The notes beneath the pieces were generated by a model. The model was not told the origin of the DNA, did no database searches, and worked only from the letters and a program-made list of their open reading frames with translations. A stretch of DNA of 64,000 nucleotides from a virus (taxonomy: Duplodnaviria > Caudoviricetes). Position numbers and translations under genes: made by a program. Position 1 is the first letter of the stretch; the number at the start of each line of letters is the position of its first letter. The stretch lies in IMG/VR virus record IMGVR_UViG_3300021387_000452. One strand, written 5' to 3'. Positions 37,556-59,984 of the stretch are shown here, piece after piece.

Positions 37556-37719
37556 CAAGTCATTTCCATTACCATACGTTAGGACTTTTTCAGGCTCTAC
37601 GTTCTGTTACTCTATTACATTCAACCGTCTTACGTATATGCACCTTGTGCACCAAATACATACAGTGGGCGATGTGTATTCTTTACCATGCAGACTAGCT
37701 CTTCGTAGCAATGACTTGT
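37556..37719 (-). ncRNA. Candidate ~165-nt RNA
   Basis: 10-bp terminal stem ACAAGTCATT/AATGACTTGT, between tRNA genes. Confidence 0.45.
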
Positions 37720-37721
37720 AA

Positions 37722-37799
37722 TGGAAAATGAAAGAATCGAACTTTTCATCTAACGACCCAATAAAGGGTCGGTTATTTTACCAGTTAAACTAATTTTCC
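37722..37799 (-). ncRNA. tRNA-like RNA with extended anticodon stem
   Basis: GGAAAAT/ATTTTCC acceptor; CGACCC-TTTATT-GGGTCG arm; bulged T stem. Confidence 0.7.
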
Positions 37800-37804
37800 A
37801 TAAA

Positions 37805-37976
37805 TGAGAAATGTAGGATTTGAACCTACTCCTTTCATGGCATCTAATATAATTCCTATAATTGTGTTAATCCTGAACTTATAGAGAAGTGACTCTCTAC
37901 TCGGGAATTGAACCCGACCAATTATAGGTATTAGTTTATAGCTTCATGAATATTCTACCAACTAAACTAATTTCAC
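37805..37976 (-). ncRNA. Two-headed tRNA-like RNA (circularly permuted tRNA nested in the anticodon arm)
   Basis: Outer D/T/acceptor arms, long connecting helix, inner T-arm, capped acceptor and D-arm. Confidence 0.75.
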
Positions 37977-37980
37977 ATAA

Positions 37981-38064
37981 TGGAGAGGGGAAGATTCGAA
38001 CTTCCGAAGCCTTTCGGCGCAGAATTTACAGTCCTGACCTGTTGACCGCTTAGGTAACCTCTCC
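37981..38064 (-). tRNA. tRNA-Tyr(GTA)
   Basis: CAGGA-CTGTAAA-TTCTG; long variable arm. Confidence 0.92.
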
Positions 38065-38091
38065 AAGCAAATTAAATAGATATCTTTCTTT

Positions 38092-38136
38092 TATTCAGTT
38101 GTCAAAGATCTTAGAACTATCTATTAGTTAGTTCTA
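38092..38136 (-). promoter_or_regulatory. rRNA-type boxA with upstream boxB-like hairpin at the head of the tRNA operon
   Basis: TAGAACTA/TAGTTCTA hairpin followed by GATCTTTGACAACTGAATA. Confidence 0.7.
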
Positions 38137-38411
38137 TTGAATCTTGCTTTTCGTAAACTGTCTATAGGCTTTCATCCAAGCTGGATTAAAACCATCAAGA
38201 ACTATCTTTGATTTAAAGTCGTTTGTCGGGACGACATCTTTATAGATATTTGAAATTGTAGAAGCATCTTCTTCAGAAAGAAGATTAAGATCAAGCCCAC
38301 CAATATAGACATCATTTTCTTTAATGACGAAGACCTTACGAGATTTCGTACCATTGGATGATGTATAGGTAAACTCTTTAATCATAGCAAACTCTCCTTT
38401 TGTTCTCTAGT

Positions 38412-58390: not shown

Positions 58391-59695
58391 TTATTTCCAA
58401 CTTTCCATTAAACTAGAAATGGCATCGTCAACTTTAGACGCGTGAGAATTATTTTGGTTATTGTAGTATTCATCAATCTCAGCAATTCTTTCGTCTCTTT
58501 CCTTAGACTCAAGAACTTCATATTTGCATCTTGTAAGAACGGTTTGCTTCTGACTGTGATATTCATCATGAGCTTTAATTTTACCAGACAGCTGTATGGT
58601 GGCGCCTTTGTCTAATGGGTACCACTGAGTATAGTTTGCACGATCATCTTTTACTGTAAATTCTAAGCCAGTTCCAGTAGACCACTTAAAAATATTTCCG
58701 TTGTCATCCATGAACAGATGGATATGAGAACTACCAAATTGAGTATCATATGTATGAGTATTCATATAGGTAACTTTAACAGAGATTTTATCACCTACAT
58801 TACCAACATACTCGCTGGATTTTTTATCTGAATTCTTAAGATCAATGAGCCTTTTATATTCACTCTTACGATATGATGGAATTAACGAAGCGAGAAATCC
58901 AAAGTGTCTTGCTGTACAATATCCAGCATCTATGATCTGTCTAAGATTAAATAGGTAACTAGATCTATTCAACTCTTCTTCTGATAAGCAGTGAATCCAT
59001 TCAATAGCATCAACTGCTTCACTCTCAACTCTATTTCTATCATATGCGTCCATGATGAATTTCCATGTAGCATTCATACTACTGGAAGGCTCAAATCCAT
59101 ATTGATCAATAAGTCTCTTTGCAGCTGAAACGATGTCCACTATATCATATGTTCTAATACCGTTAGACTCAAAGAATTCACCAGCGTATTTTTCTCCATC
59201 TATAATGGATTTTAGATCAGAGCTTTTCTCTTCTAACACTCTCATGTATTCACTTACTTCAGCAATAAGATTACCATCCAAACCAGATGTGAATTCTTTT
59301 ACGCATGAGGTGCCAACAACTTTTCTTTCACCAGACTCATTTTCTAATACGGTGATTGAATTGCGATAGACATTCTTATGACAATGATCACAATGAAAAT
59401 CAGTGTCTTTATATTGAGCAATCAAGCTAGCATCGTCGAAGTAGCACTGAACAATTCCATCTTTTCTTTGAACTAAGCCAAGTGAACGCCAACCATTGAG
59501 TTTAAATGTAACGTCAAGATTAAGATCAACGAGACTGACTTCAAAATTATTACCATCAACACTAACAAGCTTGGTATATGGGTCGCTTACATTAAACGTG
59601 TATGGCACTTGATTCTTTTCACATTTCTTAGTGATGCGACTAATTTTTCTGCAGATATCTTTAGCCATATTATTAAGAATCGTGTAAGTTGCCAT
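58391..59695 (-). CDS. Large early protein with CxxC and C-terminal OB-fold-like domain
   Basis: CDHCHK...VGTSC; YVGNVGDK...IKAHDEY...QTVLTRC. Confidence 0.55.
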   Translation of the reverse strand: MATYTILNNMAKDICRKISRITKKCEKNQVPYTFNVSDPYTKLVSVDGNNFEVSLVDLNLDVTFKLNGWRSLGLVQRKDGIVQCYFDDASLIAQYKDTDFHCDHCHKNVYRNSITVLENESGERKVVGTSCVKEFTSGLDGNLIAEVSEYMRVLEEKSSDLKSIIDGEKYAGEFFESNGIRTYDIVDIVSAAKRLIDQYGFEPSSSMNATWKFIMDAYDRNRVESEAVDAIEWIHCLSEEELNRSSYLFNLRQIIDAGYCTARHFGFLASLIPSYRKSEYKRLIDLKNSDKKSSEYVGNVGDKISVKVTYMNTHTYDTQFGSSHIHLFMDDNGNIFKWSTGTGLEFTVKDDRANYTQWYPLDKGATIQLSGKIKAHDEYHSQKQTVLTRCKYEVLESKERDERIAEIDEYYNNQNNSHASKVDDAISSLMESWK

Positions 59696-59714
59696 GTTCT
59701 GTTCTCCTTGAGTT

Positions 59715-59806
59715 ATCAAATGGAACCATTCCATTTGATTTATGAATCTCTTATAAACTAGACTGAGAACTGTGTAAAATAAAATCACCATATAAATGGT
59801 GATTTT
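59715..59806 (-). promoter_or_regulatory. Cassette copy 17
   Basis: Leader ATCAAATGGAA-TGG-TTCCATTTGAT. Confidence 0.85.
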
Positions 59807-59984
59807 AAGTAGTGCTACTTTATGTGAATGTAGATCCATTCAACAGAAGACTCAAACGCTTCTTTCATACTATCTATGAATGATAGAGCTTGATTTAACG
59901 TTTGAAATGTAGTAAATACAGGACTTTCTAGACTATCACTAGAATCGTGTCTAAGCACATACTCAACAACGTACATATTCTTAC

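Follow-up and report, generated by a model that had tools for sequence, protein, structure and literature searches.

On comparative sequence evidence, a 172-base gene within the tRNA cluster of an uncultured gut or rumen phage is confirmed as a real, conserved and unannotated phage RNA gene, with a fold that goes beyond chance. The gene occupies positions 37805-37976 on the minus strand of the window, as the whole 64,000-nucleotide stretch of DNA that was analysed will be called, and its product, here the two-domain RNA, is a tRNA body in which a closed, circularly permuted tRNA-like domain replaces the anticodon loop. This architecture, put forward in an earlier note on the same DNA, is supported by both the fold and the homologues. 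Genome annotation misses the gene: neither ARAGORN in its plain mode nor Rfam at gathering thresholds (29 bits for the tRNA family) calls it.

All of the elements listed in the earlier note can be read directly off the sequence as claimed, from 37976 to 37805 on the minus strand, where all the features given here lie. With position 1 of the RNA at 37976, the 5' strand of the outer acceptor stem, GUGAAAU (37970-37976), pairs with one U.U mismatch with the 3' strand AUUUCUC, which is followed by the discriminator A (37805-37812) and, with no encoded CCA, by a UUUA trailer like that of other tRNAs of the array. The outer D-arm, GUUU-AGUUGGUA-GAAU (37952-37967), includes A14, G18 and G19, and the outer T-arm is GUAGG-UUCAAAU-CCUAC (37813-37829). 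The inner block of 107 nt (RNA positions 32-138; 37839-37945), to be referred to as the cargo, comprises an asymmetric internal loop with AAGCUAUAAA as its 5' strand (37935-37944) and AUGC opposite (37840-37843); the stalk helices P2 (CUAAUA) and P3 (CCUAUAAUUG), the 5' strands of which (37919-37934) have their partners at 37844-37849 and 37855-37864, with a 5-nt bulge at 37850-37854, and which are found in both the MFE and the centroid folds; the inner T-arm UCGGG-UUCAAUU-CCCGA (37901-37917); an inner acceptor-like stem of 8 bp that is closed by a loop (GUAGAGAG-UCAC-UUCUCUAU; 37881-37900); and an inner D-like hairpin, GUU-CAGGAUU-AAC (37866-37878). Three stacked helices of 6, 6 and 10 bp lie between the two domains, the inner one of which has a D-like stem of 3 bp and a variable region of 1 nt. 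The complete structure of the earlier note contains 54 pairs, the U.U being the single mismatch, and was calculated at −38.0 kcal/mol versus −39.9 kcal/mol for the MFE structure; in the homologue L086 the MFE structure is exactly the proposed fold. Since the z-score of the MFE against shuffled sequences is only −2.4, energy alone is insufficient to establish the fold.

The outer body resembles the tRNA-Asn of the phage itself and, when supplied with a 7-nt loop, is called as a tRNA by ARAGORN in standard mode. For the inner domain, re-linearised and fitted with an artificial loop, standard mode gives no tRNA call, and only the relaxed mitochondrial mode accepts it. The bases of its elbow are invariant among the homologues, namely the UUCAA of the T-loop, the G-C pair that closes it and the GG of the D-like loop, and from its sequence the inner D-like hairpin would be able to form a tRNA elbow with the inner T-arm. 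An Infernal search suggested in the earlier note gave a divided answer: the Rfam tRNA model (RF00005), at relaxed thresholds, yielded partial matches to the outer acceptor plus T-arm (20.0 bits) and to the outer D-arm joined to the inner T-arm (17.9 bits), whereas the YrlA model yielded none at E ≤ 10. Compared with a canonical tRNA, the outer body has the acceptor, D and T arms of the cloverleaf, but the RNA has neither a 7-nt loop with U33 nor a score at the gathering level. A 7-nt anticodon loop with U33 cannot be obtained from the two loop strands that follow the outer anticodon stem, whether 5 or 6 bp are assigned to the latter, which bears out the earlier statement that there is no anticodon; because no cut-and-join yields such a loop, the two-domain RNA is neither a decoding nor a spliceable tRNA.

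Homologues were sought with a covariance model, R1, built from the window sequence and the structure of the earlier note, which scores 216.6 bits on the window sequence itself and matches six further distinct sequences over its full length, at 130-187 bits. No full-length match to R1 was found in 80 thyX-linked loci, where blastn and nhmmer also returned nothing; the first homologue, a sequence of 171 nt scoring 130 bits, was located elsewhere on contig G003 by applying R1 to whole contigs, a pattern search for the conserved core led to four more metagenome contigs, and walking outward from the flanking 83-aa protein led to six more. The seven distinct sequences, which represent about four lineages from similar habitats and are all on phage metagenome contigs, are those of the window (identical to L090), L191 (identical to L192-L195), L196, L086, L089, L087 and L081 (identical to L085 and to the G003 copy). 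The contigs nearest to the window come from metagenomes of the rumen or gut type. Outside this set, an exact 27-mer search of IMG/VR gave no match and a looser pattern gave four further matches there, all by chance; a pattern scan of 185,579 prokaryote genomes led to 94 loci, none of them homologous, with R1 matching only the ordinary tRNAs of one locus; among GenBank phages no close DNA relative of the two-domain RNA was found, and the surrounding 15 kb gave tRNA-sized matches only. By applying the intron mode of ARAGORN to about 220 loci, the only RNAs found with a nested T-arm were those of this family. The occurrence of the gene is patchy: it is missing from several close relatives, one of which has a 90%-identical flanking protein, and it must therefore be dispensable. 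Among the relatives reached through the flanking 83-aa protein it is confined to the P0005 group, and it is missing from the P0003, P0007, P0008, P0010, P0012, P0019 and P0030 groups.

In the alignment of the seven sequences, which was fitted to the structure of the model and thus favours that structure (the same substitutions are seen by eye in a plain MAFFT alignment), 98.1% of the pair cells hold standard pairs and 16 of the 54 pairs are changed on both sides, versus 1-4 when the 3' partners are slid by 1-3 columns (39-48% paired). It is on these both-side changes, along with the six other full-length matches to R1, that the fold is considered non-random. The changes involve all seven pairs of the outer acceptor stem, of which four different versions exist among the seven sequences, four of the six pairs of the outer anticodon stem, two of the five of the outer T stem, two of the five of the inner T stem (G-C to A-U and G-C to C-G, around an invariant loop) and one of the eight of the inner capped stem, where the first four pairs beside the T-arm are invariant. 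P2 (6 bp), P3 (10 bp) and the inner D-like stem show no covariation, their pairs being invariant or changed on one side to G.U, and it is invariance and energy alone that argue for the pairing of these three. Mismatches were observed in L191 and L196, with A.C at the fifth pair (A-U) of the inner capped stem and U.C in the outer T-stem. The asymmetric internal loop is invariant except for one base in L089. The helix that joins the body to the cargo, P1, is 7 bp long with a bulge in one lineage and 6 bp long in the other three; the inner capped stem is variable at its far end, with a length of 6-8 bp and a loop of 4-6 nt. The latter variation makes a conserved opening of the capped stem by RNase P unlikely, and for most YrlA RNAs the same event has likewise been judged unlikely (bioRxiv 10.1101/312249).

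The two parts of the molecule evolve in a markedly different way. The outer 65 nt are 43-83% identical between lineages; the four outer acceptor stems are GUGAAAU, UGGGAAU, ACCAUGU and GUCAUAC, the discriminator is A or U, and the T-loops differ. The 107 nt of the cargo are instead 82-93% identical between lineages, so that the inner domain is kept in the homologues, a point on which the earlier note had made its proposal depend. By taking into account the background identity of the flanking regions, which is 69-71% for thyX DNA and 85% for the adjacent 83-aa gene, the cargo block is seen to be more conserved than neighbouring coding DNA in the sequences compared. From these values it follows that the inner block would be selected on its sequence and the outer body only on its shape. 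The suggestion in the earlier note that a tRNA scaffold carries a module agrees with the comparative data, with an outer body that has been swapped or evolves fast and an inner block that is nearly invariant.

The setting of the gene is that of a phage tRNA array. The ORFs of the window are nearly all on the minus strand and include genes of phage type for ThyX, several DNA methylases, RtcB, an Rnl-type RNA ligase and a DNA ligase. The RNA island extends from about 34.5 to 38.1 kb and contains 20 tRNAs detected by ARAGORN. The two-domain RNA is 3 nt from its upstream neighbour, tRNA-Tyr(GUA) (37980-38065, minus), and 4 nt from its downstream neighbour (37721-37800, minus), an odd tRNA-like gene of 80 nt with an anticodon loop of 8 nt. 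These U/A-rich spacers of 3-4 nt and the missing encoded CCA are the same as for the 20 tRNAs of the array. In L089 the gene starts 1 nt after a tRNA, and in L191 it is the first RNA of the island, behind the conserved leader of the latter. This leader (TCTTTGA(A/C)AA..TGAATAAAAGAAAGATAT) was found to precede the first RNA gene of the island, whichever this is (window 38066-38140; L191:5890-5950; L086:1300-1344). The odd tRNA-like gene, of 78-80 nt, adjoins the two-domain RNA in three lineages (window 37721-37800; L191:6127-6205; L081:1780-1855) with about 82% identity, and in G003/L087 the two genes form a separate island. Its anticodon loop differs from lineage to lineage, being CUUUAUUG (8 nt) in the window, an 8-nt loop called as 'tgtt' in L191 and UUCAUUG (7 nt) in L081. 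Pairing between this loop and the internal loop of the cargo amounts to 5 bp in the window and is not conserved in L081, and the idea was dropped; a sigma-70 promoter inside the cargo block (TATAAT in P3) was likewise rejected, since the scan reports none at that place and the hexamer upstream of it lacks conservation.

The arrays of the relatives contain other unusual genes. One of them, a conserved tRNA-like RNA whose 3' CCA is encoded (L086:2697-2770, where it is directly 3' of the two-domain RNA, and L003:14123-14203), has two hairpins: one in the 5' half, which resembles a T-arm and has a UUCAUAU loop, and another that precedes the 3' acceptor strand. At L086:2775-2875 there is a tRNA-like gene scoring 23 bits with the tRNA model, in which an anticodon arm enlarged by about 30 nt includes CUGAUGAG. 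An ORF between two RNA genes of the same array (L086:1808-2476) begins with a zinc finger and has, as judged by eye from the DNA, a DUF559/Vsr-like endonuclease motif; from its sequence it is probably a homing endonuclease. Genes of the Pfam DUF559 family are also present inside the tRNA arrays of the relatives L203 and L214. In G003 (IMGVR_UViG_3300021255_002417) a tRNA with a UUA anticodon is split by a 235-nt group I intron (L003:13819-14128; Rfam Intron_gpI, 61 bits); such an anticodon would read the UAA stop codon, as in a suppressor-type tRNA. With this intron as the positive control, Intron_gpI gave no match in the two-domain RNA at E ≤ 10.

The reading that is preferred here, in which we have moderate confidence, is that the two-domain RNA is a non-decoding tRNA mimic that undergoes tRNA-type maturation by virtue of its scaffold and binds a factor by means of its cargo. 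It would be transcribed together with the phage tRNA array, and its outer acceptor, D and T arms would fold as the top of a normal tRNA, to be recognized by the enzymes that mature the neighbouring tRNAs, with RNase P acting at the 5' end, trimming of the 3' end and addition of CCA. Maturation of this type is inferred from the spacers and the missing encoded CCA, which match those of the array, and from the position within the island. Once excised, the RNA would be similar to a tRNA in stability and would expose, in place of the anticodon loop, the stalk with its invariant asymmetric internal loop and the closed permuted tRNA-like domain. The cargo would then be the working part, binding a putative host or phage factor that reads both the tRNA shape and the sequence of the stalk, and serving as a decoy, a sponge or an adaptor, by analogy with the tRNA-like domain of YrlA. 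The fold and the absence of an anticodon loop are directly observed, as are the conservation and the asymmetry between scaffold and cargo; processing, stability and binding are predicted from them and from the gene setting.

A different use of the same architecture, also considered in the earlier note, would be that of a bivalent tether or decoy, in which both elbows and the outer acceptor end bridge two tRNA-binding sites, such as those of the halves of a dimeric tRNA enzyme or of an oligomeric anticodon nuclease. The bases needed to form the elbow are kept in both domains, the outer body stays paired through many compensatory changes and is thus under selection, the phage encodes RNA repair functions (RtcB and the Rnl-type ligase), and phage tRNAs are known to counter tRNA-cutting defences (PMC11464382). 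However, the variation of P1 between 6 bp and 7 bp plus a bulge would rotate one domain relative to the other, so that the angle between them need not be fixed, and the case for a bivalent geometry is weakened. Furthermore, the outer acceptor stem, discriminator and T-loop are not conserved, which indicates no specific reader of the outer domain, and the covariation of the outer body could be explained by selection for processing alone. Bivalent binding is therefore regarded as unlikely.

That the cargo might be a Y RNA in the strict sense, namely a diverged YrlA that would bind Ro60/Rsr supplied by the host or encoded elsewhere in the phage genome and link it to an effector, perhaps in coordination with RNA repair of the RtcB type, is doubtful to a further degree. 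The tRNA-like domain of YrlA RNAs, which are Y RNAs known from bacteria and from some phages, is closed, permuted and modified by tRNA enzymes (Chen et al. 2014, PMC4201824; crystal structure in bioRxiv 10.1101/312249), and the cargo follows the same order as YrlA (RF02553): stem, T-arm, loop-capped acceptor-like stem, D-arm, stem. The two also share the T-loop and GG-containing D-loop of an elbow, a closed permuted domain with neither an anticodon nor a free CCA, and a capped stem of variable length. On the other hand, the cargo is invisible to the Rfam model and does not share the sequences of the T and D stems; it differs also in its 3-bp D-like stem and 1-nt variable region and in having no Ro60/TROVE gene nearby. 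At its base, the stalk continues into the anticodon stem of a whole tRNA body and is not the free-ended helix that Ro binds, and the 5' and 3' ends of the two-domain RNA form a tRNA acceptor stem in place of the end helix of YrlA. The YrlA model, the gathering score of which is 69 bits, gave no match at E ≤ 10 in the window region 37700-38080 and none at E ≤ 5 in the homologues L081, L086 and L089. Thus, the cargo has the topology of YrlA and is not a member of the family.

The search for a Ro60/TROVE gene, proposed in the earlier note, was also negative: none was found by Pfam in the window ORFs of at least 400 aa, none when the window and the carrier loci were searched by tblastn with the TROVE protein of a phage, and none on the carrier contig G003. 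In favour of a Ro partner, TROVE proteins occur in gut Bacteroides, and a more distant phage of the group, G004 (IMGVR_UViG_3300037461_000428, a complete 213-kb phage), encodes a 519-aa TROVE/Ro60 protein with a YrlA-like RNA directly upstream (L092:1171-1302). The latter scores a weak 25.6 bits with the YrlA model, which gives 29.9 bits on a plain tRNA-tRNA junction, and it overlaps a degenerate tRNA match; G004 does not have the two-domain RNA. As for RtcB, it is encoded in the window, as had been stated, but about 19 kb from the two-domain RNA. The two are found together in the window and in G003, 18-19 kb apart in each, and both are missing from the 95%-complete G002, while in G001, a 42%-complete contig, RtcB is present and the two-domain RNA was not found. 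The link of RtcB to the two-domain RNA is weak, and the connection with YrlA, Ro60 and RtcB that had been drawn initially is not borne out. In another relative (L203/L204:4051-5265), RtcB directly precedes the RNA island, two small genes ahead of an 84-aa protein.

The protein encoded just upstream of RtcB in the window (58391-59839, minus; phrog_2319; an ORF of 482 aa, of which about 434 aa from the likely start) is conserved in phages, with invariant Cys/His clusters, and its structure model (pLDDT 87.7) exhibits OB-fold barrels like those of RPA/SSB. It was considered as a hidden Ro60 and discarded, since only weak matches to OB-fold binders of ssDNA/RNA were obtained and there is no Ro ring. 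On the basis of the model, it could be a nucleic-acid binder that works with RtcB.

We consider it very unlikely that the block is selfish or decaying DNA, whether an insertion of inverted repeats that inactivates the anticodon loops of tRNAs or the scar of a recombination between tRNA genes. Such an origin would account for the presence of the same block, rich in inverted repeats, within tRNA bodies that look unrelated, and for its patchy distribution among relatives in arrays that hold homing-endonuclease genes and a group I intron. However, there is a single copy per contig, with no second copy in the loci searched, no direct repeats flank the block, the inner T-stem shows compensatory changes and the host tRNA bodies stay paired, unlike those of dead genes, and the block is conserved above the neighbouring coding DNA. 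Least probable of all, to the point of being nearly discounted, is a precursor of one or two real tRNAs, in which the block would be an intron or a permuted tRNA that is cut by an endonuclease and sealed by RtcB to leave an outer tRNA capable of decoding, with the inner one perhaps passing through a circular intermediate: although RtcB is the ligase of protein-dependent tRNA splicing, permuted tRNA genes are so processed in algae and archaea (discussed in bioRxiv 10.1101/312249) and the intron mode of ARAGORN calls a tRNA-Ile(GAU) with a 98-nt intron, the loop that the program itself proposes, UAGAUGC, has A at position 33, no cut sites give a loop with U33, no bulge-helix-bulge motif is present and the inner capped stem of 6-8 bp offers no conserved opening site. 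Nor does the inner domain have the features of a functional permuted tRNA, as its 'anticodon stem' would be the 16-bp stalk, which has no loop, its variable region is of 1 nt and standard-mode ARAGORN rejects it.

Phage tRNA clusters are usually explained by the supply of codons or by the replacement of tRNAs cut by host defences. The two-domain RNA suggests that they also hold non-decoding RNAs under strong selection. The division into scaffold and cargo provides an experimental handle, in that the 107-nt cargo could be moved, mutated and used as bait for its partner. If the latter were a defence nuclease or a tRNA-handling enzyme, the RNA would be a device for RNA-based counter-defence or host takeover.

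A full-text search of the literature revealed no account of one tRNA nested within another or of a tRNA scaffold occurring in nature, and no corresponding Rfam family was found. Mimicry of rRNA, tmRNA or other families was set aside, as the Rfam matches do not go beyond fragments of the size of a T-arm, and a recent preprint on new bacterial tRNA mimics appears to deal with other families. The species 1 and 2 RNAs of phage T4 (rnaC and rnaD) are likewise stable non-decoding RNAs among phage tRNA genes, and rnaC ends in a T-arm of tRNA type; however, rnaC has a single T-arm, long hairpins and no second tRNA-like domain, with no sequence similarity to the phage RNA described here. In other settings, the mascRNA of MALAT1 and the tRNA-miRNA units of gammaherpesviruses are tRNA-like 3' modules cut by RNase P/Z. 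They resemble the two-domain RNA in that a module with the shape of a tRNA is the processing handle for another RNA, but the partner RNA is beside the unit and is released, whereas the phage cargo is nested and would stay attached. Red algae and archaea have permuted tRNA genes (Soma et al. 2007, discussed in 10.1101/312249) that share the arrangement of the inner domain, in that the 5' acceptor strand and the D-arm come after the T-arm and the 3' acceptor strand and a loop initially closes the acceptor stem; in these genes, splicing at a bulge-helix-bulge then generates an anticodon loop and a working tRNA, and the phage RNA has neither.

A further parallel is the laboratory 'tRNA scaffold', in which recombinant RNA is expressed in bacteria as an insert in the anticodon stem of a tRNA (PMC3753655). 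If the preferred reading is true, the two-domain RNA would be a natural precedent for tRNA-scaffolded RNA expression. A more specific proposal, which we put forward tentatively and consider possible rather than probable, is that phages have independently evolved the same trick, with a tRNA body that is free to evolve and would only mature and protect the nested device, and that this device, a closed tRNA-like head on a stalk of invariant sequence, captures a specific host tRNA-handling protein or defence nuclease, in which case it would represent an undescribed class of phage anti-host RNAs. The laboratory scaffold is an engineered device, while in the phage RNA processing is inferred. In the laboratory construct, as in the proposal made here, a cargo RNA replaces the anticodon loop, tRNA enzymes process and stabilize the product, and the sequence of the scaffold is free to vary while that of the cargo is not.
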